Below are positions 4,897-34,285 of a DNA stretch of 64,000 bases, in pieces. The stretch is from the NCBI GenBank assembly GCA_964457775.1, contig CAYWEW010000006.1:10805-74804 (forward strand), in the 5' to 3' direction. A program made the position numbers and the translations under genes. The stretch comes from an uncultured Candidatus Saccharibacteria bacterium (GTDB lineage Bacteria; Patescibacteriota; Minisyncoccia; Phycocordibacterales; UBA5272). How positions within the stretch are numbered: the first letter of the stretch is position 1; each line of letters begins with the position of its first letter. The notes under the pieces are model-generated. The model had not been told where the DNA came from. It worked only from the letters and a program-made list of their open reading frames with translations, and ran no database searches.

Positions 4897-6567
4897 ATGA
4901 ATTTATCGAAAAAGGTTTTACAGGCTCTGCTTATTTTGGGTTCTATCTCCCTCACCACCTCTTCTGTTTATGCATCAATAACAATAACGTCGCCAAATGG
5001 AGGTGAAAATTGGTCAGGAACAAAAACAATTACTTGGACCAGTGTCGGAACAAGTGGATTCGTAAATATATATAGATGTCTAACATTAGATTGTTCTTCT
5101 ACATCCACAGTTGCAACCAATGTTACAGATACAGGTTCGTCTACCTTTGATACGTCTGGGTTAAACGCTACTAACAAAATTTACATAGAAGATGCATCAG
5201 ATACTTCAATGTCAGATGTTTCGGATAACACATTCAGGATCGATAATACAATTTCTAGCTGTAATGCTTCGATTGGGTCAAATAATACTGGCTCTGCAAG
5301 AATAGCAAAAGTAGGTGATCTTATTACCGTCAACTTTGATACTTGCGAATCAATAAGTTTAGGGACCGTTACTTTTTTTGGAAAAATAATTAATGCTACG
5401 AACATTGGAGGAAATACTTGGTCTGTTTCTACAACGACAACCATGACTGATGATGAAGGTCTTGTTTCTTTTAATATTAATTATACCGACCTTGCGGGTA
5501 ATTCAATGTCACGATCAAGTACAGTTAATGGATCATATGTGATATATGACAAAACATTTCCAGAATCCTCTATATCTTTTTCAACATCAACATTCACAAT
5601 TGGAAGTATGGCTACCGCAACAATTACCTTTAATGAGAAAGTAAGAAACTTTGCAAATGATGACATTATTAGAATTGATAACGGAACACTTTCTACTGCA
5701 ACATCATCTGATGACGGGATCACATGGACAGCGATTTTTACTCCGACAGATGCTACAAGTTCATTAAGTAACGTAGTTGTTATTGATACATCTCTGCTTA
5801 ATGATATTGCAGGAAATACTGGAACAAGTACAGCAACATCTTCAAGCTATATTATTGATACTGAGAGACCTACAGCGACAACATCACTGTCTTCTAATTC
5901 AGTTGGAATTAGTCAGACAATAACCCTAACAATTACCTTTAATGAGAAAGTAAGAAACTTTGCAAATGATGACATTATTAGAATTGATAACGGAACACTT
6001 TCTACTGCAACATCATCTGACGACGGTATAACGTGGAACACTATCTTCACCCCAACATTAGGAATTAGTAATACTATAAGTACCATTGCTATTGGATCAA
6101 GCTACACTGACATTTATGGAAATACCTCAGCAACAGGTACAGTTACTGCGAATTTTATCGTTAATACTCCTACAGTTAGTCAGAGTGGAGGCGGAGGTTT
6201 TTCTGGAGGCGGAGGTGGAGGTTCAGTTGTAACTGTTGTTCAGCAACCTGTAGCTACCACTACACAAAATCAAAATACAGCGCAATCCGTACCCGTAACA
6301 ACTCAAAGTACTCTAAACTTACCAACTGTTCTAGGAGCTTCGATATTTATCTTCTCGAAAAACTTAAAGTTAGAATCTACAGGAAATGATGTGATGGAAT
6401 TACAAAAGTTCTTAACAAAAGAAGGATTTTTCAGCAATAAGCCAACTAAGTATTTTGGTAGACTTACGAAAATTGCATTGATGAAATGGCAGAAAAAAAA
6501 CAATTTGCCAGCGACAGGATATTTTGGTCCTATGTCTAGAGTAACTATAAACAGCAATTCTAATTAA
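4897..6567 (+). CDS. secreted surface protein with Big_5-like Ig repeats, a Gly linker and a C-terminal peptidoglycan-binding (PG_binding_1-like) domain
   Basis: It has a signal peptide. Domains ending in ...D(L/I)AGN(T/S) are repeated, matching the Big_5 signature. A GGGGFSGGGGGGS linker precedes the C-terminus. The C-terminus LESTGNDVMELQKFLTKEGFF...LTKIALMKWQKKNNLPATGYFGP matches the PG_binding_1 pattern. Confidence 0.7.
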   Translation: MNLSKKVLQALLILGSISLTTSSVYASITITSPNGGENWSGTKTITWTSVGTSGFVNIYRCLTLDCSSTSTVATNVTDTGSSTFDTSGLNATNKIYIEDASDTSMSDVSDNTFRIDNTISSCNASIGSNNTGSARIAKVGDLITVNFDTCESISLGTVTFFGKIINATNIGGNTWSVSTTTTMTDDEGLVSFNINYTDLAGNSMSRSSTVNGSYVIYDKTFPESSISFSTSTFTIGSMATATITFNEKVRNFANDDIIRIDNGTLSTATSSDDGITWTAIFTPTDATSSLSNVVVIDTSLLNDIAGNTGTSTATSSSYIIDTERPTATTSLSSNSVGISQTITLTITFNEKVRNFANDDIIRIDNGTLSTATSSDDGITWNTIFTPTLGISNTISTIAIGSSYTDIYGNTSATGTVTANFIVNTPTVSQSGGGGFSGGGGGGSVVTVVQQPVATTTQNQNTAQSVPVTTQSTLNLPTVLGASIFIFSKNLKLESTGNDVMELQKFLTKEGFFSNKPTKYFGRLTKIALMKWQKKNNLPATGYFGPMSRVTINSNSN

Positions 6568-9446: not shown

Positions 9447-10871
9447 ATGGCGAAAAAAGTATCTTCACAAAAAAAGAGTGTACAGAAAAAAACTACAACA
9501 AAAAATGTAGTCAAAAAATCAAAAACCAATAAGGTGGTATCTTCAAAGAAGACTACCCCTGCAGTGAAAAAATCTCTTGCAAAGAAATCACAAAAAAAGA
9601 CACCAAAGAAGACAACAAAGAAAGTCATACCTACAAAAAAAGTAACTAAGAAAGTAGTTAAGAAAGTAACAAAAAAAGTTATCAAGAAAGAAAAGAAGAT
9701 TGCTCCAAAAAAGCAAACTCCAAAAATAGAGGAAAAACCAAAGTACAAACCAAAAGCTTTCACAATTAAGACAGGTCCATCAAAACCAAAGATTGTTGAA
9801 AAACCAAAGAAAGTAACTACTCGTGATCAAAACGAAGAGGAGCTTCTAAAAAAAGGAAAGGAACGAGGATTCATTACATATGATGAGATTATTCGTTATT
9901 TCCCTACAATTGAGACGGATATTCTTTATCTAGAGGAATTGTATGAAAAGATGAGCGCTGCAGGAATTGACGTTCTAGAAGGTGGAAATCTTCTTGATAT
10001 GGATGATGATCTTCTTAAATTAGAAGGGCGTGATAGTACTCATGATAGTATACAAATGTATTTACGTGAAATTGGTCAATATCCTCTAATTTCAGGAGAT
10101 AATGAACGTGAACTTGCTATTCGTATTGAAAAGGGTGATATGGAAGCTGGAGCATTACTTGCTAAAGCAAACCTCCGTCTTGTTGTTTCCATTGCGAAGA
10201 AATACGTTGGGCGTTCATCTGATCTTACACTTCTTGATCTTATTCAAGAAGGTAACTTAGGGCTCTTTAAAGCAGTTGAAAAGTTCGACTGGAATAAAGG
10301 CTTTAAGTTCTCAACTTATGCTACTTGGTGGATTAGACAAGCAATCACACGTGCGCTTGCTGATCAATCAAGAACAATTCGTATTCCTGTGCACATGGTA
10401 GAAACAATTGCTAAGTACAAACAAGTAGTTCGTCGTCTATCACAAGATCTAGGTCGTGATCCACTCGCAGAGGAAATAGCGGTAGAAATGAATGTTGATG
10501 TTGAAAAAATTCACATTATCGAAAACATTAATCAAGACACTGTTTCACTCGAAAAGCCAATCGGAGACGATGATGACAAGTCCACACTAGGTGAATTTAT
10601 CGCTGATGATAAAATTCTTTCTCCAGACCAAGAAGCGTCACACAGAATTCTTGCTGACCAAATCAATGAAATATTAGATGATCTTTCTCCAAAGGAAAGA
10701 AAGATTGTAGAAATGCGAAATGGCCTCGGTGAGTTCGATGGCGTTATGCACACTCTTGAAGAAGTAGGGGCAGAGTTCGGAGTTACTCGTGAACGTATTC
10801 GTCAAATTGAAGCAAAGGTACATGAAAAGATTCGTTCTCATGATAAATCAGAACGTTTAAGAAATTATTAA
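9447..10871 (+). CDS. rpoD: RNA polymerase sigma-70 factor with a ~125-aa Lys-rich N-terminal extension
   Basis: Regions 1.2 to 4 are conserved ([69 protein letters not shown]). The N-terminus is a KKxxKK low-complexity tail. Confidence 0.92.
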
Positions 10872-10903: not shown

Positions 10904-10920
10904 TTTTATAAAACCAAAAG

Positions 10921-10949
10921 AAAAAACACTTCTTGAGAAGTGTTTTTTC
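10921..10949. terminator. bidirectional terminator hairpin between the convergent rpoD and RRM gene
   Basis: AAAAAACACTTC-ttga-GAAGTGTTTTTT has A/T runs on both sides. Confidence 0.6.
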
Positions 10950-10972
10950 ATTGTGTGTATTTCTAATTTAAA

Positions 10973-13405: not shown

Positions 13406-14266
13406 ATGGAACCCACTTTAAATCTAAACGACATTGTCGTTATGTATCATGCTCATTGTCCAGATGGAATGGCTTCAGCTTGGAGTGCTTGGAAAAAACT
13501 TGGTGACTCCGCAAGTTATATCCCAGTTTCTGATAGGAACGTGCCTCCAGAAGGTCTTGTTAATAAAGAGCTATATATATTAGATTTTTGCTATCCTGCA
13601 GAAGTTTTAAAAAAACTTGAAAATGCTAATAAAAAAGTTGTCGTTCTTGATCATCATGTGAGTTCAAAGGATGACGTAATGTCAATTACTGGAGGAGTTT
13701 TTGATAATACTCGTTCAGGAGCAGGGATGGCATGGGATTATTTTTTTGAGGGGATTCCACGGCCTAAACTTATAAACTATATAGAAATTGGCGATCTTAA
13801 TCCTCATAATTTACCTGAAGGAGAACATTTATCACAAAGAATAATATCAACTCCATTTAGTATGAAAGATTATGGTGATCTAATTTCTAGATATGAAATT
13901 GATCCAGATGCTCTTATAAATGAAGGCAAGGCAATTGATTTGTATGTTGCACGTCTATTTGATATGGCACTAGATGACTATGAACTTGTTTCATTTGAAG
14001 GTTACACTATGCCGGCGATTAATATTGCTCTACCTCTAACTACAAAATCTCAACTACTTATGAAGATGTATGAGTTGGTACCTCCAATTGCAATGTCGTA
14101 TCGTCATGAAAATGGACTTTGGAAAGTTTCATTACGCAGTGATGGCTCTGTTGATTGTTCAGCACTTGCATCCAAATATGGAGGGGGTGGGCATAAGGCA
14201 TCAGCTGGATTTGTTTTGAAGTCAGACAGCCCACTTCCTTTTTTAAGGTTTATTGCTAGTGATTAG
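13406..14266 (+). CDS. DHH/DHHA1 phosphoesterase (NrnA-like nanoRNase/pAp phosphatase)
   Basis: Motifs HAHCPDGMAS, VLDHH and GGGGHKASAG (DHHA1 GGGH..AAG). Confidence 0.8.
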   Translation: MEPTLNLNDIVVMYHAHCPDGMASAWSAWKKLGDSASYIPVSDRNVPPEGLVNKELYILDFCYPAEVLKKLENANKKVVVLDHHVSSKDDVMSITGGVFDNTRSGAGMAWDYFFEGIPRPKLINYIEIGDLNPHNLPEGEHLSQRIISTPFSMKDYGDLISRYEIDPDALINEGKAIDLYVARLFDMALDDYELVSFEGYTMPAINIALPLTTKSQLLMKMYELVPPIAMSYRHENGLWKVSLRSDGSVDCSALASKYGGGGHKASAGFVLKSDSPLPFLRFIASD

Positions 14267-14368
14267 TTCACGGTATAATTATTCTCCAAGTTTATCTCCT
14301 ACATATATACCAACCCACAACAACTTAACCAGTTGCCATGAAAAGTGTCATGTTTTATTTTGAACCTA

Positions 14369-15070
14369 TTATTTGGTTATTTCAATTAACGTGTCATTAG
14401 AAACTTTAAAGTATCTTGATGTCAATATTGTCGGTTTAGTTGTCATAGGGGATTCAATCGGTCTGTCGAAGTACTTAACCACAATTTCACCATTTACAAA
14501 TTCAGTTGTTTTGGGAACAACTCTATCACCAATCAATGCTCCGTTAGTTCCTTCATATTCACCATTTTCATTCAGTATAGCAACTACAAGATAATAAAAG
14601 GCCCCAACCCCTGAGTTGTCACTAGTAATAATAAATGCAGAGTCTATTCTATTATCTTCATTAATGTCTACTCTTAACTCATTTCCGAAATACCTAACTG
14701 TCGTTGTTGATAATATATTATTGATTAGATCTACTTTGGTTGCGGTCCCGTTATCAAGATTAAACATTCTTCCTTCTATGTCGTAAGAAGTATTCTTTGG
14801 ATTAGTTTTTTTTGCTATTAATGTTGTTGTCGAGACTATAGTTTCCGATGCAGTTTGAGATGTATTAACAAAAACCTTTCCAGGGATTTTACACTGTTCT
14901 GGATAAGTTGTGAGTATTTGGTATCCAGCAGAAACGCATTCATCAAAATTTGTTATTGATAAATGTTTTTTTTGAGCTTGCTTGAAATATAAGTATGCAA
15001 CAAAAAGAAATATTATGAGTGATAAATACAGAAATATTCTTACACCACGCTTCAAGGTTCTTTTTTTCAT
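14369..15070 (-). CDS. hypothetical membrane-anchored exported protein
   Basis: N-terminal signal-anchor MKKRTLKRGVRIFLYLSLIIFLFVAYLYF. It is the last gene of the histidine-kinase operon. Confidence 0.5.
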   Translation of the reverse strand: MKKRTLKRGVRIFLYLSLIIFLFVAYLYFKQAQKKHLSITNFDECVSAGYQILTTYPEQCKIPGKVFVNTSQTASETIVSTTTLIAKKTNPKNTSYDIEGRMFNLDNGTATKVDLINNILSTTTVRYFGNELRVDINEDNRIDSAFIITSDNSGVGAFYYLVVAILNENGEYEGTNGALIGDRVVPKTTEFVNGEIVVKYFDRPIESPMTTKPTILTSRYFKVSNDTLIEITK

Positions 15071-26809: not shown

Positions 26810-27202
26810 TCATTTGATACCGTATACGATGCGGATGAGGGCACGAAGCGCTCTCGGGAGGTTCCGACCATTCTCGTAACGAGAACCACCGGATTGAGTG
26901 ACGCCGACAGCCATCCAGAAATCTTTTTGATTGAGGCCGATTTTTTGACGTACCTCTTTCAGCTTTTTGGGTGACAAAGGTTTGAAGTTCGGCTTCACCT
27001 TGTCGTTGTACACGAAACGAATGAGTGCACGTACGAACTTCGGAATGTTTCTACTGCTTTCATAGCGAGAACCACCGGATTGAGTGACACCCAAAGCCCA
27101 CCAGAATTTACCCTGGTTGAGCTTAAGTTTCCGTCGTCTCTCCTTCAGTTTTCCTGCTATGAATGTTTTGAAACAAGGTTTCTTTTGCCCGATTGGGGAC
27201 AT
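26810..27202 (-). CDS. single-chain tandem XRE-type HTH DNA-binding protein (two HTH repeats)
   Basis: Two repeats of LNQ(G/K)xFWxA(L/V)GVTQSGGSRYExxRN(I/L)PxxxRALIRxVY, matching the XRE-HTH pattern G.SQS.VSR.E.G.R.P. The repeat is also visible at nucleotide level (cgagaaccaccggattgagtgac twice). GC is about 50% against a genome value of about 35%. Confidence 0.6.
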   Translation of the reverse strand: MSPIGQKKPCFKTFIAGKLKERRRKLKLNQGKFWWALGVTQSGGSRYESSRNIPKFVRALIRFVYNDKVKPNFKPLSPKKLKEVRQKIGLNQKDFWMAVGVTQSGGSRYENGRNLPRALRALIRIVYGIK

Positions 27203-27785: not shown

Positions 27786-27824
27786 AAAAGCCACCGACAA
27801 GCGATGGCTTTCGGTGGAAAAAAT
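27786..27824 (-). terminator. intrinsic terminator of the island family GCCACCGA..TCGGTGGC
   Basis: Minus-strand RNA CCACCGAAAGCCAUCGCUUGUCGGUGGCUUUUUAUAUA. Confidence 0.65.
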
Positions 27825-27831
27825 TATTTCA

Positions 27832-28041
27832 TTAATCAGGAATTATGACATCCTTCCATGATTGTGGAATGAGTTTGCTATCGATTCCAAAACTTTTTCC
27901 GCACGCTTCACAACTTACTTCGAATGTAGAGGAGTGATGAGAAATTTCATTGTAGTGTATATCTTTTGAAAAGACACCAAGTGAAGATTTGCAACGTGGG
28001 CACTCGACTGTGATGTAATTGTTATTCTTCAAAACTTTCAT
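27832..28041 (-). CDS. small zinc-ribbon protein
   Basis: CPRC...CEAC motifs. The start is taken at MKVLKNNNY, which is preceded by GGAGA. Confidence 0.5.
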   Translation of the reverse strand: MKVLKNNNYITVECPRCKSSLGVFSKDIHYNEISHHSSTFEVSCEACGKSFGIDSKLIPQSWKDVIIPD

Positions 28042-28096
28042 TTGTATCTCCATGTGTGTAAGAGGTCAACAAACATAATGGGTGGGAGGTTTGGGA

Positions 28097-28369
28097 TTAT
28101 CTTTCTAAGGGAATGAGTATTAATCCGGGGTTTTTCCCAGTTGATTCCCAATCAATCCTGTAGCCCATTTTAGCAAAATGTTCCTCTGAATATTTTCTGA
28201 TGTATCCCAACCGCATTTTCCACCAATTATCAAAGGCAGAGAATTGAGCTGAAGCTGACCAGAAATTCATCGTCATCGGATTTTTATTTTCTGCGTCAAA
28301 TTTTGCAAGAGCATCCAGACATTCTTTCTTCCACTCGTCAGCAGTTTTCTCGGTGAGAAGGGTTTGCAT
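28097..28369 (-). CDS. hypothetical small protein (90 aa)
   Basis: TTGACA-N18-TATTAT promoter at about 28400-28430, AGGAGA RBS, and a terminator of the island family downstream. Confidence 0.5.
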   Translation of the reverse strand: MQTLLTEKTADEWKKECLDALAKFDAENKNPMTMNFWSASAQFSAFDNWWKMRLGYIRKYSEEHFAKMGYRIDWESTGKNPGLILIPLER

Positions 28370-28495
28370 TACGGTCTCCTAAAGGAACAATACTCACATA
28401 ATACAATGATTATCTATATGTTGTCAAGTTATTTAAGAGATGGGTAAATTTATTTATATTCAATAAAATAACAGTACAGTGGTTAATATATAAAT

Positions 28496-28530
28496 GAAAG
28501 CCACCGACAAGCGATGGCTTTCGGTGGTGT
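28496..28530 (-). terminator. intrinsic terminator (island family)
   Basis: The same CCACCGA-loop-TCGGTGG hairpin, followed by T-rich sequence on the minus strand. Confidence 0.6.
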
Positions 28531-28545
28531 TTAAGTTTGAGTTAT

Positions 28546-29187
28546 TCAGTAAATAATATTTGCATCATACAATGCAGTAATCAGCTTCCTTCTGTCTGGA
28601 TTATAAACAAACATTTTCTCTTTGATTTCTGAAGGTGCGAGAGCTCGTGCTTCTCCTTCTTTTTCATTCACACGATGGAGCGCGTCATAGACATCAGCAA
28701 TGGCAACAATACGGCCGTACTCACGAATCAAGAGCTTGGTAGTCTGTCTATAATTATGAAGATATTGAGGTAGAACATCAGGGTAACCATCATCTTGGAA
28801 CTTGTGATGCCAGAGCATAGCCTCTGCTGTGAAATCAAAGCGTCCACGCAAGAGTCGATATCCATCCAAAACATGGTTCTCAATTTCTTCCTGGTCTTTT
28901 TCACTCCATGTACCAACTTTACCGAGCACATCAAGACATGTCTGACATTTACCAAGATCATGTAGTGCCCCTGCAAGGAAAAGTGGTTTTGATTCATGAT
29001 GAGTAAAATTACCAATCTTCATTGCGAGCAAACCCACACGAAGTGAATGCTCGTAGTGGAAACGAGTGACTGCGCTTTTGTCTCGCAACGGTGCGAGTAT
29101 AGAGCGTAAATGATTTTGGTTGGTTGTTGTTATCCCGATTGCTTTGGCAGTTTCCCAAAACGTAACTTCCGTCTTCGATGTTTTCAT
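28546..29187 (-). CDS. stand-alone HD-GYP domain protein (213 aa)
   Basis: Motifs HYEHSLRV, ALHDLGK, WHHKFQDDGYP (HHExxDGxGYP) and IADVYDALHRV. Confidence 0.7.
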   Translation of the reverse strand: MKTSKTEVTFWETAKAIGITTTNQNHLRSILAPLRDKSAVTRFHYEHSLRVGLLAMKIGNFTHHESKPLFLAGALHDLGKCQTCLDVLGKVGTWSEKDQEEIENHVLDGYRLLRGRFDFTAEAMLWHHKFQDDGYPDVLPQYLHNYRQTTKLLIREYGRIVAIADVYDALHRVNEKEGEARALAPSEIKEKMFVYNPDRRKLITALYDANIIY

Positions 29188-29371
29188 TAGTTATTATCCT
29201 TTCTGAAATTGAACTATTTCTAATATAAAACTATATAACAGGGGGAGGTTTGTCAAGCTAATAATCTATTATTTGTGGAAAATATAATGTGTGGTCAGTA
29301 CATAAAACAAGAAACCGCCAAAGCAATTTCTTGCTAGCGGTTATGAGAATATTGTAAAACTGATTTCTAAT

Positions 29372-29647
29372 TCAACGCAATATATAACTGTGAAGAAACT
29401 GACCAACGAACCCCAAGTTGTTCACATGGTACCAAGTTGTCCACGCTGAAACAAAAAAGAAAGGAGTGGAGATCAAAATAATCATATGGGGGATTCCGTC
29501 CAGTCCTCGACCTTTAATGTCTATTCCAACATAAACATAAAAACATGTGTTGAGCACTGTCAGTGTGATCAAAACTATAGTGGAAAAAGTCGAGGCAACG
29601 AACCAACCTGCAAAAACGAGAGCAGTAATCACAAAAATTTGTAACAT
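29372..29647 (-). CDS. small integral membrane protein (3 TM)
   Basis: Hydrophobic protein. It lies 11 nt downstream of the preceding gene and is probably bicistronic with it. Confidence 0.45.
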   Translation of the reverse strand: MLQIFVITALVFAGWFVASTFSTIVLITLTVLNTCFYVYVGIDIKGRGLDGIPHMIILISTPFFFVSAWTTWYHVNNLGFVGQFLHSYILR

Positions 29648-29658
29648 CTATACTCCTC

Positions 29659-29892
29659 TTATTTGAAATGAATAGTTAGTTCTGTGGGGTCATAGCATCC
29701 TACCGTTCCATCTTTATGCTTGACTTCATAGCACAGTCCATGAGAATCGTGGTGAGCTATGACTTCACCTTCAACCCCCCACTTACGTCGTTTTTTTCCT
29801 TCTTCAGTCCATGAATCAGCATTTGCTTCATCTTCTTGAGTGGTTCTAACGAGAGTTCCAGGAGAAATGGGTGGGTATTTTCCCGCGTTCAC
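29659..29892 (-). CDS. hypothetical small protein (GTG start)
   Basis: Strong promoter TTGACA-N17/18-TTATAAT at 29941-29970 and an AGGAA RBS. No recognisable domain. Confidence 0.5.
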   Translation of the reverse strand: MNAGKYPPISPGTLVRTTQEDEANADSWTEEGKKRRKWGVEGEVIAHHDSHGLCYEVKHKDGTVGCYDPTELTIHFK

Positions 29893-29940
29893 TGAGATTC
29901 CTTTCTAATCGATTATGTTTAAATGAAAAAGAACAAAAGC

Positions 29941-29970
29941 ATTATAACAATAAATATTAGCTTTTGTCAA
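29941..29970 (-). promoter_or_regulatory. sigma70 promoter for the 29659..29892 unit
   Basis: Minus strand TTGACAaaagctaatatttattgTTATAATgcTTTTGTTCTTT. Confidence 0.6.
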
Positions 29971-30058
29971 TTTTTAAATGATATCACGTGATGGAAATTA
30001 TTATATAAAACAAGAAGTCGCCACTAAGGTGACCCTTGTGGCGACTGTTGCAAAAACT

Positions 30059-30244
30059 TCACGATACAAGTTCTTTAGTGGTAGGAATTGTATTCTTACC
30101 ACAGTCAGGGCATTTTACTCCCTTTAACCCAACACTAATTAGTGTGGTAAACTTTTTCCATCTGGACTGTTTCTCCAAAGATTCAACAATACGACGACCT
30201 TCCCACTGGCAGTGAGGGCATTTTAGTCTTTTTTCAAGAGTCAC
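30059..30244 (-). CDS. small zinc-ribbon protein (probable GTG start)
   Basis: CPHC...CPDC motifs. The ORF-track ATG overlaps the -10 box, so a GTG start after GGAGAAAGAT is used. A terminator lies downstream. Confidence 0.5.
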   Translation of the reverse strand: MTLEKRLKCPHCQWEGRRIVESLEKQSRWKKFTTLISVGLKGVKCPDCGKNTIPTTKELVS

Positions 30245-30374
30245 ATCTTTCTCCAAAACGAACAATAATCTCATAATACAATGATTGTATATTTCTTGTC
30301 AATTATATCAAATAGCAGTAATTATATTCATAATACTTGATTGGAAGTAAACGTGAAAATGTCGGGAGCAAATA

Positions 30375-30410
30375 GAAACCACCGAACGCGCGGTGGCTTT
30401 CGGTGGGGAG
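30375..30410 (-). terminator. intrinsic terminator (island family)
   Basis: Minus strand CCACCGAA-agccaccgcgcg-TTCGGTGG followed by TTTCTATTT. Confidence 0.6.
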
Positions 30411-30418
30411 TTGATTTC

Positions 30419-30634
30419 TTAATCATCGCCAAAAAGTGCATCGCCAATGGCGGCGCCAATGAAGTCTCCTCCGACCAGTCCGCCGATTAACGTGCTATCA
30501 GTTACAGCACCAACAACGAAGCTTGTAAAAAAATCGCCATCATCTTCGTATGACACTTGACGGTATGCAACTGGACACTTGTGACTTTGTCCAGGATGAA
30601 GGATAGTCCCGCACCTGCATTTTTTCTGACTCAT
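30419..30634 (-). CDS. small peptide with an N-terminal Cys/His cluster and a C-terminal glycine-zipper hydrophobic segment (71 aa)
   Basis: MSQKKCRCGTILHPGQSHKCP ... GGLVGGDFIGAAIGDALFG (GxxxG repeats). GAGG RBS. TTGACA-N17-TATACT promoter. Confidence 0.5.
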   Translation of the reverse strand: MSQKKCRCGTILHPGQSHKCPVAYRQVSYEDDGDFFTSFVVGAVTDSTLIGGLVGGDFIGAAIGDALFGDD

Positions 30635-30700
30635 GGTAACCTCATGGATTATTAAAGAACAAAAATAGTATACCATAATATACTGAATCTGTCAACAAAG

Positions 30701-30770
30701 TTCCAATTAGTAAACAAGCTCCAAACCTTTGAAAAGGGGAAGTATGGGAGTGTGATGAGAGCATAAAAAC
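30701..30770. repeat. conserved promoter-upstream element, copy A (degenerate)
   Basis: Aligns to the 68-nt family GCTCCAACTGGTAAACAAGTTCAGAACTTTTGATTGGAGGAAGTATGAGAATGTGGTGAGTATATAAAA. Confidence 0.5.
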
Positions 30771-30822
30771 AAGAAACCGCCAGATCATACTGATCCAGCG
30801 GCAGAATTGCTTTATTCATATA

Positions 30823-31365
30823 TCAAGAATTAAAAGCAAATCTCCATATTCGTTGTAGTACACTAATCCTTTTACCGTAACGTAAACCATTATCGTATTC
30901 GTAACCATGTTTAACTAATGGCAACGTACCCTCTTCAACAAGGGGAATGCACGATTCACCACCAAGTTCAATAACCCCAGGTATATCAATCCAATTACTC
31001 AAAGACTCTGTTTTAACCCAAAATCCGCGACCTGGATTAAAGTATGTATCAACACTTATCTCACTACTGTCATTGATTCTAATTGGCTTTAACAACATTA
31101 TCTCATTAATACACATAACGAATGCACTACTTCGAAGACGGTACACAATGCTGCAGTGTAGAAGTGCTCCAACTGTACAAAACGGTATGATTGCATCATA
31201 TTGTGCCCTATACTTCTGTTCACCACAGCAACCAGCGATAATGAGAGCAATTACAACCTTGTGACCCATGCTATCTTCTAGGTCGCAAGAGAAAACTGTA
31301 TTATTACCTTCACGTATTTCTGCTTTTCGTACAACGAAATCTCGGTAGATATCTTCGTGTACCAT
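30823..31365 (-). CDS. hypothetical protein (180 aa) from MVHEDIYRDF
   Basis: AAGGAGA RBS and TTGACA-N17-TAGAGT promoter. The longer ORF-track start would run through the promoter. Confidence 0.5.
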   Translation of the reverse strand: MVHEDIYRDFVVRKAEIREGNNTVFSCDLEDSMGHKVVIALIIAGCCGEQKYRAQYDAIIPFCTVGALLHCSIVYRLRSSAFVMCINEIMLLKPIRINDSSEISVDTYFNPGRGFWVKTESLSNWIDIPGVIELGGESCIPLVEEGTLPLVKHGYEYDNGLRYGKRISVLQRIWRFAFNS

Positions 31366-31431
31366 GACGAGTCTCCTTAATTTAAAGAACAAAATTACTC
31401 TATAATTTCGGGATTTGATTGTCAAGTAGTC

Positions 31432-31500
31432 GCTCCAACTGGTATGCAAGTTCAGAACGTTTGATTGGAGGAAGTATGAGAATGTGGTGAGTATATAAAA
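31432..31500. repeat. conserved promoter-upstream element, copy B
   Basis: gctccaactggtatgcaagttcagaacgtttgattggaggaagtatgagaatgtggtgagtatataaaa. Confidence 0.7.
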
Positions 31501-31541
31501 GCAAAACCCCACCTAAGCAATGATTGCTTAGGTGGAGTGAA

Positions 31542-31901
31542 TTAAACCTGATATTCTTGTAAATTAAGTAAGTCAAAAATTTTCACTCGTACAAGATTTT
31601 CAATTTGCTCAGGAGATTCGTTACCTTCAAGAACAATGATTTTCTCTTGAGTAACTCCATCTTCCAACAATAGAGCAACGTATCCTTCACGCGTCTGACC
31701 AGAAGTGAATGTCGTATATTCTCCAATGACTACAACAACATTATCTTTGCCAAATCTCTTAACACGCATTAATCCGAGTACATCAGTTGAAGCAAAATGC
31801 AGACGTTCCAAACCCCAACCACCAACTCTTCTGGAAAGAAGGTCAAATTTTTCTCGGTTTTGATCTTGAACACAAATTATCTCAAACATACTGGGTGGCA
31901 T
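31542..31901 (-). CDS. hypothetical protein (119 aa)
   Basis: GGAGG RBS. Promoter TTTACA-N17-TATAGT with an embedded palindrome. Terminator CCACCTAAGCAAT-cat-TGCTTAGGTGG downstream. Confidence 0.5.
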   Translation of the reverse strand: MPPSMFEIICVQDQNREKFDLLSRRVGGWGLERLHFASTDVLGLMRVKRFGKDNVVVVIGEYTTFTSGQTREGYVALLLEDGVTQEKIIVLEGNESPEQIENLVRVKIFDLLNLQEYQV

Positions 31902-31924
31902 ATTGCCTCCGTTATTAAAAGAAC

Positions 31925-31954
31925 AAAAACACTATACCATAGTATAGTGTTTTT
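31925..31954. promoter_or_regulatory. 12-6-12 perfect inverted repeat (candidate operator) overlapping the -10 of the 31542..31901 promoter
   Basis: AAAAACACTATA-CCATAG-TATAGTGTTTTT. The -35 (tgtaaa on the plus strand) is at 31954-31959 and the -10 at 31931-31936. Confidence 0.6.
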
Positions 31955-31965
31955 GTAAATATCAA

Positions 31966-32034
31966 GCTCCAAACAGTACACAGGTTCAGAACATTTGATT
32001 GGAAGAAGTATGAGAATACGGTAGGTATATAAAA
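31966..32034. repeat. conserved promoter-upstream element, copy C
   Basis: gctccaaacagtacacaggttcagaacatttgattggaagaagtatgagaatacggtaggtatataaaac. Confidence 0.65.
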
Positions 32035-32075
32035 CAGGAAACCGCCGAAGCAGTCCTGTTTTGCTTGGCGGTGAA

Positions 32076-32216
32076 TCACCCCATTGCGGCACGTGACTTG
32101 CCGGTGTAATAGCAACCGCTGTTGCCGCCGGTGTAGGTACGTCCATCGTGGTAGTAATCGCAGGCAACTTCGTATTCGTAGTTGCCACATCTTTGCCAAA
32201 AGGTGACGGTGCTCAT
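32076..32216 (-). CDS. 46-aa Cys/Tyr/Gly-rich peptide
   Basis: MSTVTFWQRCGNYEYEVACDYYHDGRTYTGGNSGCYYTGKSRAAMG. GGAGA RBS. Perfect TTGACA-N17-TATAAT promoter at 32248-32276. Confidence 0.45.
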   Translation of the reverse strand: MSTVTFWQRCGNYEYEVACDYYHDGRTYTGGNSGCYYTGKSRAAMG

Positions 32217-32247
32217 CAAAAATCTCCTGGTTAAAATGACAAATACC

Positions 32248-32276
32248 ATTATACATAATATAATAGTATTTGTCAA
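32248..32276 (-). promoter_or_regulatory. consensus sigma70 promoter of the 46-aa peptide unit
   Basis: Minus strand TTGACAaatactattatattatgTATAAT. Confidence 0.65.
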
Positions 32277-32282
32277 TATGGT

Positions 32283-32349
32283 GCTCCAACTGGTAAACAA
32301 GTTCAGAACTTTTGATTGGAGGAAAGTGAATGTAACTGGTATATAAAAT
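32283..32349. repeat. conserved promoter-upstream element, copy D
   Basis: gctccaactggtaaacaagttcagaacttttgattggaggaaagtgaatgtaactggtatataaaat. Confidence 0.7.
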
Positions 32350-32401
32350 AAAAAAAACACCCCGATCTATGTCGGGGTCGCTTTGTGAAGTGGAGCAGGG
32401 C

Positions 32402-32758
32402 TTACGCCGAATCTTCTTCAAACTCGAGTTCGAATTCTCGATCGCCGAGAGGGTTGTTGTAGTCCGGCATGAACCGCATTGATCGCCTAGCGTCGACTGG
32501 CGAGTAATGGATCTCATAGTCGTTATCATCGCCGTTGCGGGTCTCGTCGTAGATCAGTCGTTGGAGTTCTTCGGCTTTTGGCGTGATAATCCGCAAGCTC
32601 TTCTCTTCGCCCATTCGGCCACGCTGAACCTTCGAGATTTCATACGGCTTACCACGTTGCTTGAGGAATTCGATCATCGCCTCGCGCTCACGCTCGTAGT
32701 TGCCCACGAACACATCCAAACAGTGGGATGTCTCAACTTCGGTGCTGGTTTCGCTCAT
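32402..32758 (-). CDS. acidic hypothetical protein (118 aa), GC-enriched
   Basis: Start at MSETSTEV preceded by AAAGGAA. GC is about 50%. Terminator CCCCGA-catagat-TCGGGG followed by T8. Confidence 0.5.
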   Translation of the reverse strand: MSETSTEVETSHCLDVFVGNYEREREAMIEFLKQRGKPYEISKVQRGRMGEEKSLRIITPKAEELQRLIYDETRNGDDNDYEIHYSPVDARRSMRFMPDYNNPLGDREFELEFEEDSA

Positions 32759-32887
32759 GATACTATTCCTTTCGTATTGAACAATGAGTACCAACAACAC
32801 TAATACAGTATTATATTTTTGTCAAACAAGTTCTAAACCCTAATTGGGTAAATGAAAAACACCTTATGTAAAAGGTGCTTTTCAAGT

Positions 32888-32926
32888 GCTCCAACTGGTA
32901 AACAAGTTCAGAACTTTTGATTGGGC
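32888..32926. repeat. conserved promoter-upstream element, copy E (half-copy)
   Basis: gctccaactggtaaacaagttcagaacttttgattggg. A further degenerate fragment lies at 32821-32852. Confidence 0.55.
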
Positions 32927-33032
32927 AAAAATAAAATAACAACATTTAATTATAACCTTTACAAATTAATAAGTAGTGATAGTATAAAGAATAGTAGTTA
33001 TGTTTAATTTCATTTTTATTCGGAGATGAATA

Positions 33033-33221
33033 ATGTTTTACTTGTATAAAACTTTGTTTCGTAATGTGATTACATCTTTCCTACTTATTAATTTGCTTCT
33101 AATTGCAAATTGTAGTGGTGAGAGCGATGGACATGTTTGTGGTTGTGGTTGTGGACGATGGATACCAAAGGAACGTCCCAGTCAGTGTGATGAAAATGGG
33201 AATTATAATGGAAATTATTAA
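33033..33221 (+). CDS. small Cys-rich exported (lipoprotein-like) peptide, 62 aa
   Basis: Signal peptide with LIANC. CGCGCG cluster. GGAGA RBS. TTTACA-N16-TAGTAT promoter. Terminator AAAAAACACC-atta-GGGTGTTTTTT at 33230-33262. Confidence 0.4.
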   Translation: MFYLYKTLFRNVITSFLLINLLLIANCSGESDGHVCGCGCGRWIPKERPSQCDENGNYNGNY

Positions 33222-33419
33222 TTCATTCCAAAAAAACACCATTAGGGTGTTTTTTATTTTATCAGTTCGATGGGTGATCGTTCAGCTAGTTGGTATTTTA
33301 TTTCATAACTTCGTTATTCATAAAACACCCAACTTCTCGACTCCGAGGAAAACCAACAAAATTTTTTCTAAAAATATTTGAGCTCAATTTTTAGAAAGAA
33401 ATTGTGTAGACCGTTTTCC

Positions 33420-33468
33420 GTTCGATCCCTACGTAAAGAAGGTAATCCTTCTTTACTACCCACCGAGC
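33420..33468 (+). repeat. inverted partial copy of the tRNA-Asn 3' end (T-arm plus acceptor) interrupted by a 24-nt palindrome
   Basis: GTTCGATCCCTAC[GTAAAGAAGGTAATCCTTCTTTAC]TACCCACCGAGC against the tRNA sequence GGTTCGATCCCTACCCACCGAGC. TAC is duplicated at the insertion point. Confidence 0.7.
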
Positions 33469-33505
33469 CAAATGAAAAACACCCCGTAAGGGATGCTTTT
33501 CATTT

Positions 33506-33576
33506 GGCTCCAACTGGTAAACAAGTTCAGAACTTTTGATTGGAGGAAATATAAAGAGGTGTTGAGTATATAAAAA
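33506..33576. repeat. conserved promoter-upstream element, copy F
   Basis: gctccaactggtaaacaagttcagaacttttgattggaggaaatataaagaggtgttgagtatataaaaag. Confidence 0.7.
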
Positions 33577-33610
33577 GAAAGCCACCGAATGCGCGATGGC
33601 TTTCGGTGGT
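33577..33610 (-). terminator. intrinsic terminator (island family) downstream of the pilin gene
   Basis: AAAGCCACCGAATGCGCGATGGCTTTCGGTGG. On the minus strand the hairpin is followed by a T-run. Confidence 0.6.
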
Positions 33611-33627
33611 GTTTGTGAATTAACTGA

Positions 33628-33945
33628 TTACTTGTTTGCAGGGCATTCACTGAATTCGTAGTTGAACAGTATAGAAGTATCCAGACAGTACTCTTTTCGG
33701 GAGCCGTCTTTGTTTTCAACCTGCAGGACTGATTTGTCAAAAATATTTCGCTGAGTGGTAAGAATCTTTGAAACACTGGAATGCGAAACTTGAAGCTCGC
33801 GCAGGGCGCTATCGGTCTGAAACCAAAAGTTTCCCTGACATACTGTTTTTATTGCAAACACCCAACCAACAACGACAATGATGAAAATAATTACAAAGAC
33901 AGTCAAAAGTTCAATCAAAGTAAAACCGCGATTATGACTTTTCAT
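33628..33945 (-). CDS. type IV pilin/pseudopilin-like protein (prepilin N-terminal methylation motif)
   Basis: MKSHNRG/FTLIELLTVFVIIFIIVVVG is a class III signal with G-F-T-L-I-E. Two Cys residues lie in the C-terminal part. Confidence 0.7.
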   Translation of the reverse strand: MKSHNRGFTLIELLTVFVIIFIIVVVGWVFAIKTVCQGNFWFQTDSALRELQVSHSSVSKILTTQRNIFDKSVLQVENKDGSRKEYCLDTSILFNYEFSECPANK

Positions 33946-33981
33946 ATCTCACTCCTCAAAATAGTTAATGAACAATAGAAC

Positions 33982-34011
33982 AAAAACACTCTACCATAAT
34001 AGAGTGTTTTT
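33982..34011. promoter_or_regulatory. 12-6-12 perfect inverted repeat (candidate operator) overlapping the pilin promoter
   Basis: AAAAACACTCTA-CCATAA-TAGAGTGTTTTT. The -35 (tgtaaa) is at 34011-34016 and the -10 at 33988-33993. Compensatory changes relative to the 31925 copy preserve the dyad. Confidence 0.6.
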
Positions 34012-34023
34012 GTAAATAGCTGA

Positions 34024-34095
34024 GCTCGGTGGGTAGGGATCGAACCTACGACCAATTCGTTAACAGCGAACTGCTCTACCGCTGAGCTACCACCG
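34024..34095 (-). tRNA. tRNA-Asn (anticodon GTT)
   Basis: Minus strand: acceptor TCGGTGG/CCACCGA, D-arm GCTC-AGCGGTA-GAGC, anticodon stem GTTCG/CGAAT with loop CTGTTAA, T-arm GTAGG-TTCGATC-CCTAC, discriminator G. CCA is not encoded. Confidence 0.85.
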
Positions 34096-34285
34096 AATAT
34101 TTTATTATTTACACAATATTTTACTATAAAAGTATTCCACTCCTATTTCAAATGTATTCATAATAATACACAAAAAAGTGATTTTTTGCAAGAAGAATTT
34201 TTGTGTATAAGTTAAGCAAGATAAAATTATGAAAATAAAAATCCCTGCATTTTGCAGAGATTTTTAGTGATTATTCACACATTAA

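Follow-up and report, generated by a model that had tools for sequence, protein, structure and literature searches.

Palindromes spanning cassette promoters beside a tRNA-Asn gene of a Saccharibacteria bacterium, tentatively read as terminator hairpins fused to promoters

The described elements that come closest to the palindromes treated here are intrinsic (Rho-independent) terminators, including bidirectional ones, the symmetric operators of repressors, integron attC arrays, promoters controlled by DNA cruciforms, and the tRNA-adjacent islands known as tycheposons. Here, we analyse a stretch of 64,000 nucleotides (nt), hereafter the window, from an uncultured Candidatus Saccharibacteria bacterium (contig CAYWEW010000006.1), in which two closely similar palindromes overlie the promoters of two small genes in an array beside a tRNA-Asn gene. 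We tentatively propose that each palindrome is a terminator hairpin fused to the promoter of its own cassette; we could not find a description of a terminator-promoter fused in fixed register and repeated at cassette edges in the literature searched.

In common with intrinsic terminators, these elements have a stem-loop of 9-15 bp that is preceded by an A-rich flank and followed by a U-rich tract, a spot right after a tRNA gene, a folding energy like that of terminators native to the organism, and a stem kept by compensation. Unlike such terminators, the stem here is unusually A+T-rich and carries a complete, near-consensus -35/TRTG/-10 arrangement in fixed register, and most island copies have another terminator about 80 nt upstream. 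Dyad-symmetric operators laid over core promoters are familiar from phage Cro/CI, from LexA boxes and from the KorA/KorB operators of IncP plasmids, with which the window shares an inverted repeat over the spacer and -10 and the presence of related sites at several promoters of one mobile region. The palindromes differ from these operators in their continuous pairing over 14-17 bp, in arms whose sequence and register are not fixed, and in that no co-occurring binder was found.

Integron attC arrays are likewise one-orientation arrays of small cassettes at a fixed site, with elements near the junctions whose folding is conserved and whose sequence varies, and with the same cassette at different array positions in different genomes. 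Unlike integrons, this locus yielded no IntI and no R'/R'' cores, its palindromes are perfect and free of bulges, each cassette has its own promoter and terminator, and the repeat module at its junctions (see below) is sequence-conserved and unstructured. Control by a supercoil-driven cruciform is known from an engineered Escherichia coli promoter. Cruciform-controlled promoters share with the present elements an inverted repeat, in or near the promoter, whose extrusion would block transcription; the arms here are short, unlike theirs, and the bias of T-tails towards the sense strand points to RNA and not to DNA. A cruciform reported to be attenuated by HlyU in Vibrio parahaemolyticus belongs to the same group (PMC10325908). 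The tycheposons of Prochlorococcus are tRNA-adjacent islands built by repeated integration (bioRxiv 10.1101/2020.12.28.424599); in common with them, the present locus has grown beside a tRNA gene, with newer elements pushing older ones away and repeats marking old junctions, and unlike them, its units are single-gene cassettes of 0.4-1 kb without an integrase, and its repeat is not demonstrably a partial tRNA.

Two palindromes and the family to which they belong

Read directly from the window, positions 31925-31954 are AAAAACACTATA-CCATAG-TATAGTGTTTTT and positions 33982-34011 are AAAAACACTCTA-CCATAA-TAGAGTGTTTTT, as an earlier note on this DNA had reported; with the flanking AC/GT (giving ends ACA...TGT) both prove longer than described there, each forming a perfect 14-6-14 palindrome, designated class A (31923-31956) and class A' (33980-34013). 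The compensatory change that the note described is also present: A at 31934 faces T at 31945 in class A, C at 33991 faces G at 34002 in class A', and pairing, and with it dyad symmetry, is kept in step. The centres differ at one position (G at 31942, A at 33999), with the effect on the gene strand that a loop-closing C-G becomes T.G. The genes downstream of both palindromes lie on the minus strand, on which the two sites fit a single composite, TTTACA-AAAACACT[A/C]TA[C/T]TATGG-TA[T/G]AGT-GTTTTTGTTCT, followed by a ribosome-binding site (RBS) and a start codon.

The reported overlap with the spacer and -10 of plausible promoters was borne out by a consensus scan, which recovered TTTACA-N17-TATAGT and TTTACA-N17-TAGAGT (Table 1). 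Both sites have the -35 and -10 hexamers at 17 +/- 1 bp and the TG/TRTG extension of sigma-70 promoters, with TATGG (TRTGn) immediately 5' of the -10, and the window encodes an RpoD homolog. The gene behind class A has an RBS, GGAGG, 5 nt ahead of its ATG, and the class A' promoter is the sole promoter-like site within the 78 nt that separate tRNA-Asn from the pilin-like gene.

Not one of 2000 hexamer-keeping shuffles matched the palindrome score of either site, and the folding z-scores of the pair are about -6 as RNA and -8 to -9 as DNA. The class A hairpin folds at -18.1 kcal/mol as RNA (z -6.3) and at -13.8 kcal/mol as DNA, and the class A' RNA hairpin at -18.8 kcal/mol, with no equal for either copy among 200 shuffles. 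Both palindromes also pass a terminator scan, which lists class A with 15 pairs and a T-run.

Further copies of the pattern ACACTnTA-N6-TAnAGTGT, for which the earlier note had suggested a genome search, did not appear in the window: the only two matches are the reported pair, even with two mismatches allowed. The degenerate relative that it placed in the promoter of 30419..30634 does exist, at 30667-30695, as a decayed family member retaining 10 Watson-Crick pairs and one G.T of 14, but is not significant alone, being equalled or bettered by 272 of 2000 shuffles. A third palindromic promoter (32236..32276), which serves the gene for a 46-amino-acid (aa) peptide at 32076-32216, matches consensus at 12 of 12 positions (TTGACA-N17-TATAAT), was equalled by 0 of 2000 shuffles and has an RNA hairpin of -19.8 kcal/mol.

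These sites belong to a larger family, for which the comparison drew on the window and related metagenomic loci (given L numbers here). In a scan of these, 13 of 29 strong promoter-like sites sit in long palindromes matched by 0-1 of 2000 shuffles, and one more palindrome from L028 brings the promoter-spanning palindromes collected to 14. Their layout is common: the arm begins at the (G)ACA of the -35, a centre of 4-8 nt carries TG/TRTG, the -10 lies inside the right arm, and the arm closes at TGT(C) near +1 to +5. Every member has TTGACA or TTTACA as its -35, spaced 17-18 nt from a TAnnnT hexamer, with an RBS and start codon 20-40 nt downstream, and the asymmetric loop places TG/TRTG just 5' of the -10 on the gene strand only. 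The presence of TG/TRTG on that strand alone, together with the perfect spacing of TTGACA and TAnnnT, argues that the promoter is also real.

The middles of the arms vary and yet stay complementary, as in GACAATAAACATATTAT/ATAATATGTTTATTGTC, ACAATAGTAACATAAT/ATTATGTTACTATTGT, ACAATACTCACATAAT/ATTATGTGAGTATTGT, GACAAATACCAGTATA/TATACTGGTATTTGTC and ACAAACACTAGTATA/TATACTAGTGTTTGT. In an alignment of the 12 of 14 palindromes that could be placed in register (16 pairs), 96.6% of pairing cells are complementary vs 78.5% in shuffles (0 of 500) and at most 57% in slid registers, and double-sided changes occur in 8 of the 16 pairs. Within one promoter the left and right arms are complementary at 13-17 of 17 positions, vs about 8 when the right arm is taken from another promoter. 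Because at least nine distinct arm sequences share one architecture, the conserved feature is the pairing and not a recognition sequence, and the compensatory pair reported in the window is one case of a strong general selection, or generating mechanism, for pairing itself.

Between the window and L012, 39 nt over the palindrome are identical while the gene behind it is 76% identical; L027 has 44 nt in common with the window, with a diverged 5' untranslated region (UTR) and a gene that is 85.6% identical. By these comparisons the palindromic element is evidently under constraint and more conserved than its surroundings, which, with the shuffle results, upholds the earlier view of a palindrome that is not due to chance and is under selection, though a protein operator is not thereby implied. 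Single-arm variants do exist (G>A in L001, T>C in L009), as does a change of TTTTT to TTTAT in L012. Among orthologous pilin promoters, ACAAAAACACTCTA-TTATGG is found in the window and in L027, ACAAACACTAGTATA-TTATG in L028, a decayed palindrome in L033, and essentially none in L029, where the gene has a core-genome context. Ahead of the same 119-aa gene, some genomes have the class A palindrome and L015 has an unrelated 16-6-16 palindrome, and the breakpoint of this promoter exchange between L015 and the window coincides with the palindrome end.

An arm-agnostic skeleton, ACAAAAA-N9-ATGG-N7-TTTTTGTTCT, had seven matches in 185,579 genomes (one per GTDB species), none of them homologous, and five of the seven are plain G+C-rich hairpins between A- and T-runs, of terminator type. 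The palindrome and module patterns were both unmatched in IMG/VR scans, BLAST against a phage collection matched the tRNA alone, and Rfam reported only tRNAs at the relevant loci.

A candidate fusion of terminator and promoter

We consider it plausible, though tentative, that each palindrome unites a terminator hairpin with the promoter of its cassette, and that it marks the 5' boundary of a small, self-contained mobile unit. Transcription arriving from upstream, whether from the tRNA-Asn gene or from the preceding cassette, would give a sense RNA in which a hairpin of 14-15 bp, flanked by A and U, is followed by UUUUUGUUCU, and this hairpin with its T-tract could act as an intrinsic terminator or as an insulator against read-through. 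The same duplex would serve as the sigma-70 promoter of the cassette: its left arm would have the -35 at its foot, its loop would supply TRTG and its right arm would contain the -10. Cassette transcription would restart about 7 nt past the -10. Compensatory changes would, under this scheme, keep the RNA stem. We propose such a fusion because position, anatomy, energy and strand bias point to an RNA hairpin and the promoter features argue for a real promoter.

With regard to position, class A' lies at the end of a transcription unit, 12 nt past the 3' end of tRNA-Asn, a fact of which the earlier note made no use, whereas the unit upstream of class A is already closed by the G+C-rich terminator at 32039-32056. 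A cassette that sits directly behind a tRNA gene parts that tRNA from its own terminator, so a replacement terminator would have a plausible selective reason, and the terminator argument is strongest for the copy behind tRNA-Asn. Plain A-tract/stem/T-tract terminators are found 2-12 nt past other tRNA genes (tRNA-Asn in L033, the first tRNA-Asn copy of L012, and tRNA-Tyr in L029). Such terminators also fill the slot of the palindromic promoter behind about 10 modules. Over 30 tRNA or module junctions, the 55 nt that follow fold at a median of -17.0 kcal/mol, vs -6.5 kcal/mol for random windows of the same loci (Mann-Whitney p = 5e-11).

The anatomy and energy of the elements agree with those of local terminators. 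Pairing is unbroken over 14-17 bp and, as expected of intrinsic terminators, the sequence is A-rich on the 5' side and T-rich on the 3' side; the class A arrangement AAAAACACT..AGTGTTTTT resembles core-genome terminators such as that at 10917-10952 (AAAAAACACTTC-TTGA-GAAGTGTTTTTT). Palindromic promoters fold at -18 to -23 kcal/mol, and local terminators at -15.7 to -27 kcal/mol. In both window copies the transcribed strand has a U-rich tract, TTTTTGTTCT, directly 3' of the stem, and a hairpin with a T-tail is found on the sense strand of 9 of 11 elements and on the antisense strand of 3 of 11.

Several observations weigh against a fused terminator-promoter. About half of the strong cassette promoters either lack a palindrome or keep the right arm while the left has decayed, so the hairpin would be dispensable for the promoter. 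In the window lineage a strong G+C-rich terminator lies about 80 nt upstream of most modules, which makes the class A copy look redundant. The T-rich tail is missing from 2 of 11 family members, and a T-rich tract, TTTTGTTCTTT, also stands behind non-palindromic cassette promoters and may have another role. Mismatches on the sense strand (four or five T.G, two C.A and two A.A) lean towards an RNA hairpin without reaching significance. Finally, termination and initiation at the palindromes are both inferred from sequence.

If a terminator and promoter are indeed fused in this way, cassettes would carry their own insulation: read-through would not swamp a gene that lands behind a strongly transcribed tRNA, and the tRNA would not be deprived of a terminator by the insertion. 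Such an element would suit plug-and-play cassettes through its compactness, and synthetic insulated promoters could naturally be modelled on it.

Rival readings of the palindromes

The earlier note took the in-step change to be the signature of a protein-binding operator. In our view it is unlikely, and less likely than a terminator-promoter, that the palindromes are operators at which RNA polymerase is blocked by a repressor, dimeric or pseudo-dimeric and specific for their sequence, possibly the tandem helix-turn-helix (HTH) protein encoded at 26810-27202. The dyad symmetry over the spacer and -10, the strong conservation of the site between genomes and the tandem RsaL-like HTH gene in the distal end of the island would all suit such an operator, as would a motif resembling the inner arms in the HTH gene's own promoter, ACTATA-TAT-TATAGTGT; this motif, however, has a centre of 3 nt instead of 6 and is not significant (290 of 2000 shuffles). 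At least nine arm sequences would require as many cognate repressors in an apparently small genome, and among orthologous pilin promoters the half-site sequence changes and its register moves by several bp, a displacement that no single dimeric repressor could accommodate. Continuous complementarity over 14-17 bp exceeds the needs of HTH half-sites, and no cassette protein has a DNA-binding domain.

Nor is a link between the proposed binder and the palindromes supported. Among 5.8 billion proteins, the closest non-self relative of the HTH protein is 52% identical, and the same collection holds genomes with cassette genes 90-99% identical to those of the window and with the same palindrome; a homolog is also absent from the fetched loci that carry the palindrome, although these loci and the metagenome-assembled genomes are incomplete, which weakens this point without reversing it. 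In-step changes alone are no signature of protein binding, because template-switch correction of quasi-palindromes can also yield them without selection for binding, and with the variety of arm sequences, the shifting half-site register and the terminator-like anatomy the step from compensation to operator does not hold. If the terminator-promoter reading is right, this would be a caution for operator prediction based on symmetry: compensatory changes in a promoter palindrome would here point to RNA or DNA folding and not to a repressor. As a separate observation, the family to which the HTH protein belongs (PF22495) consists mostly of single-domain proteins of 95-101 aa, and the product of 26810-27202 is a single chain with two domains.

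A structure-specific recombination signal, in which the hairpin and the GGAGC-ending module would be read as folded DNA by a cassette-moving enzyme and the promoter would be merely resident, appears improbable. It would suit cassettes that are mobile, share one orientation and have an exact left edge immediately ahead of the hairpin, as well as a structure that is kept while its sequence varies and a promoter that can be exchanged (class A vs the 16-6-16 palindrome of L015, before the same gene). The arms, however, are locked to the positions of the -35 and -10, a restriction without use to a recombination site, the palindrome is decayed or absent in many cassettes, and GTTRRRY/RYYYAAC cores and extrahelical bases are missing; no recombinase domain or integron integrase was found in the window open reading frames (ORFs) scanned, two giant ORFs lying outside the scan. 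We likewise regard as improbable, taken as a whole, an integrase-unlinked cassette system in which single-gene cassettes would insert precisely after the tRNA-Asn 3' end or a GGAGC-ending repeat, and in which the structure-conserved hairpin would be both folded-DNA recombination signal and promoter, a promoter-bearing analogue of attC.

A DNA cruciform switch, in which negative supercoiling would extrude the A+T-rich palindrome, place the -35 and -10 on separate arms and silence the promoter, we hold to be quite improbable. Arms as short as 14-17 bp extrude poorly in vivo, T.G, the sense-strand form of all four long-standing mismatches, weakens a DNA hairpin too, and the sense-specific T-tail bias and the slot shared with ordinary terminators would be left unexplained. 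The geometry is nonetheless apt, for the arms are perfect and A+T-rich, the centres are 4-6 nt, single-stranded DNA hairpins reach -12 to -14 kcal/mol on both strands, the covariation is independent of sequence and the -35 is always separated from the -10. Cruciforms are moreover documented in bacterial promoter regions (for example PMC10325908).

It is very unlikely that the palindromes have no function of their own and that quasi-palindrome template switching (arm-to-arm copying) keeps the symmetry in an otherwise free spacer. Such switching is a known mutational hotspot, and several promoters with a decayed left arm and an intact right arm are as expected if only the -10 and downstream sequence are selected. 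The repeated origin of long palindromes in the same register, their placement at tRNA or module junctions where other copies have terminators, and the identity of both arms where the 5' UTR and the gene have diverged would remain unexplained.

A symmetric bidirectional promoter, whose mirror -35/-10 would drive a divergent transcript into the module, is highly improbable: a mirror promoter of 11/12 exists at 32236-32264 (+) and one of 9/12 at L010 4365-4337, and the plus strand of several module copies has GGAGG and then a mini-ORF of 3-4 codons, but the mirror -35 of the two reported palindromes is AGAACA (3/6) without TG, the module has no RNA structure, and the reading accounts for the hexamers alone and not for complementary, variable arm middles. 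More generally, GGAGG followed after 4-5 nt by a mini-ORF of 1-4 codons (MRMW*, MRIR*, MGV*, M*) occurs opposite the cassette strand, downstream of the palindrome's mirror promoter, in the modules 31432-31508, 31966-32042, 30700-30776 and 32283-32359 (+) and at L001 3990-4030 (MKIW*), possibly by chance.

Other candidates were set aside. A likeness to the phiX174 viral-strand origin (NC_001422 4299-4328, listed as L034, with the gene A nick site) rests on CTTGATATT and AACACTATA in the copy read from 31965 to 31930 and is attributed to chance, the pilin copy having neither and the spacing being off by 3 nt. The two copies are not the attL and attR of a 2-kb insertion, since each is internally symmetric, non-hybrid, and travels with its own gene elsewhere; a tyrosine-recombinase core site of dif/lox type fits in geometry (arms of 11-13 bp, centre of 6-8 bp), but the centres differ (CTATGG vs TTATGG) and neither copy is a hybrid of two parents. 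In a single-stranded promoter of Frpo type, no more than about 7 bp would separate the -35 from a -10-like hexamer once the stem had folded, and no promoter would be rebuilt.

The cassette array beside tRNA-Asn

The window is a piece of bacterial chromosome, with rpoC, dnaG, rpoD, priA, def, fmt, mreB and proS and about 35% G+C; gene content and the environmental origins of related contigs suggest an uncultivated lineage, probably akin to Patescibacteria. Small minus-strand genes form an array between tRNA-Asn and about 27.8 kb. Each has a promoter and a G+C-rich terminator, and in the tRNA-proximal part of the array (30.7-33.6 kb) cassettes are followed by a module of 60-77 nt ending in GTTCTGAACTTG..TAC.AG..GGAGC, present in six copies (Table 1).

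Table 1. Positions of palindromes, promoters, hairpins, modules and genes in the window
Feature	Position	Strand	Details
Class A palindrome, 14-6-14	31923..31956	-	core 31925-31954; gene strand ACAAAAACACTATA-CTATGG-TATAGTGTTTTTGT
Class A' palindrome, 14-6-14	33980..34013	-	core 33982-34011; gene strand ACAAAAACACTCTA-TTATGG-TAGAGTGTTTTTGT
Sigma-70-type promoter TTTACA-N17-TATAGT	31931..31959	-	consensus scan 10/12, TG present; for gene 31542-31901
Sigma-70-type promoter TTTACA-N17-TAGAGT	33988..34016	-	consensus scan; for pilin-like gene
Decayed family member	30667..30695	-	TTGACA-N17-TATACT with AGTATA-TTATGG-TATACT
Third palindromic promoter	32236..32276	-	TGACAAATACTATTATA-TTATG-TATAATGGTATTTGTCA, 17-5-17 with one T.G
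119-aa cassette gene, behind class A palindrome	31542..31901	-	
105-aa protein with prepilin N-terminal methylation motif, behind class A' palindrome	33628..33945	-	
tRNA-Asn (GTT)	34024..34096	-	3' end ..CCCACCGAGC; insertion point of first cassette; syntenic tRNA-Asn in L012, L033
Module directly ahead of class A cassette	31966..32042	-	ends ..TTTGGAGC; repeat search
Other module copies	30700-30776, 31432-31508, 32283-32359, 32886-32935, 33507-33583	-	repeat search
G+C-rich terminator, 3' end of preceding cassette	32039..32056	-	terminator scan
Analogous G+C-rich terminators	31506-31538, 33577-33604, 30776-30802, 32359-32378		terminator scan
Ordinary A-tract/stem/T-tract hairpin directly after module	32853..32884	-	second example 33465-33510; -21.3 and -25.3 kcal/mol
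Tandem RsaL-like HTH protein	26810..27202	-	PF22495 (HTH_92), two stretches; palindrome link unsupported

By comparison between loci, the array units are mobile cassettes, and their left edge falls exactly ahead of the hairpin. All lie in one orientation, and palindromic elements start 0-12 nt past ..GAGC, which belongs either to tRNA-Asn (window; L012 copy 2) or to a module (window 31966, L001, L009, L027, L028). The 119-aa cassette follows a module in the window, L001 and L009 and directly follows tRNA-Asn in L012-L014 (..CCCACGGAGC, then TTGATATTTACAAAAACAC..), and the pilin cassette, which lies behind the tRNA in the window, is found behind a module in L027, where its palindrome is identical. 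L012 and L033 represent the same chromosomal locus with different cassettes (priA-def-fmt-peptidyl-prolyl isomerase-S30AE-membrane protein-tRNA-Asn), with ABC (ATP-binding cassette) transporter genes at its far end in L033, the L012 sequence ending earlier. Related genomes have different cassettes at one locus, with precise junctions and no visible recombinase.

The module shares its GGAGC ending with tRNA-Asn, and its local alignment to tRNA-Asn is no better than that of shuffles; it is not demonstrably a partial tRNA, and it has no consensus RNA structure and no Rfam match. It may be a protein-recognised, att-like site. Its sequence is conserved across distant metagenomes (also L016-L028) and contains the perfect palindrome AAGTTC-T-GAACTT and an invariant TCCAAT.

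At one chromosomal locus beside tRNA-Asn there is a hypervariable array of single-gene cassettes (27800-34100 (minus) of the window, L012 6000-10584, L033 2040-9000 and L010 1-9000), each unit consisting of a small gene between a hairpin or promoter and a G+C-rich terminator, in most cases followed by the GGAGC-ending repeat. L012 has two full tRNA-Asn genes 3.6 kb apart (6094-6168 and 9770-9842), with an ordinary terminator behind the first and the class A palindrome behind the second, an arrangement suggestive of an insertion that brought a complete tRNA copy with it. A recurrent element behind a tRNA or module and its terminator has the tRNA 3' end in inverted orientation (GCTCCGYGGGTA..GTAGGGATCGAA), interrupted by a hairpin insertion, and extends for 150-250 nt; it was seen in the window at about 33395-33467 (minus reading), at L012 6212-6400, L033 2158-2290 and L001 2960-3270, and at about 690 in L010, 650 in L025 and 1600 in L027, and drew no ARAGORN or Rfam call.

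Within the array, the 46-aa peptide of 32076-32216 (-) is rich in Cys, Tyr and Gly and has no Pfam match; a 62-aa ORF on the opposite strand (33033-33221, +), also without a Pfam match, has a lipobox-like signal, LIANCSG, and its own promoter and terminator. L026 is a distant contig that bears modules; there, the initial 447 positions of the 16S rRNA model are spread over 1235 nt (13766-15000), which implies a large insertion, and a LOOT RNA (RF03000) lies at 5658-5778.

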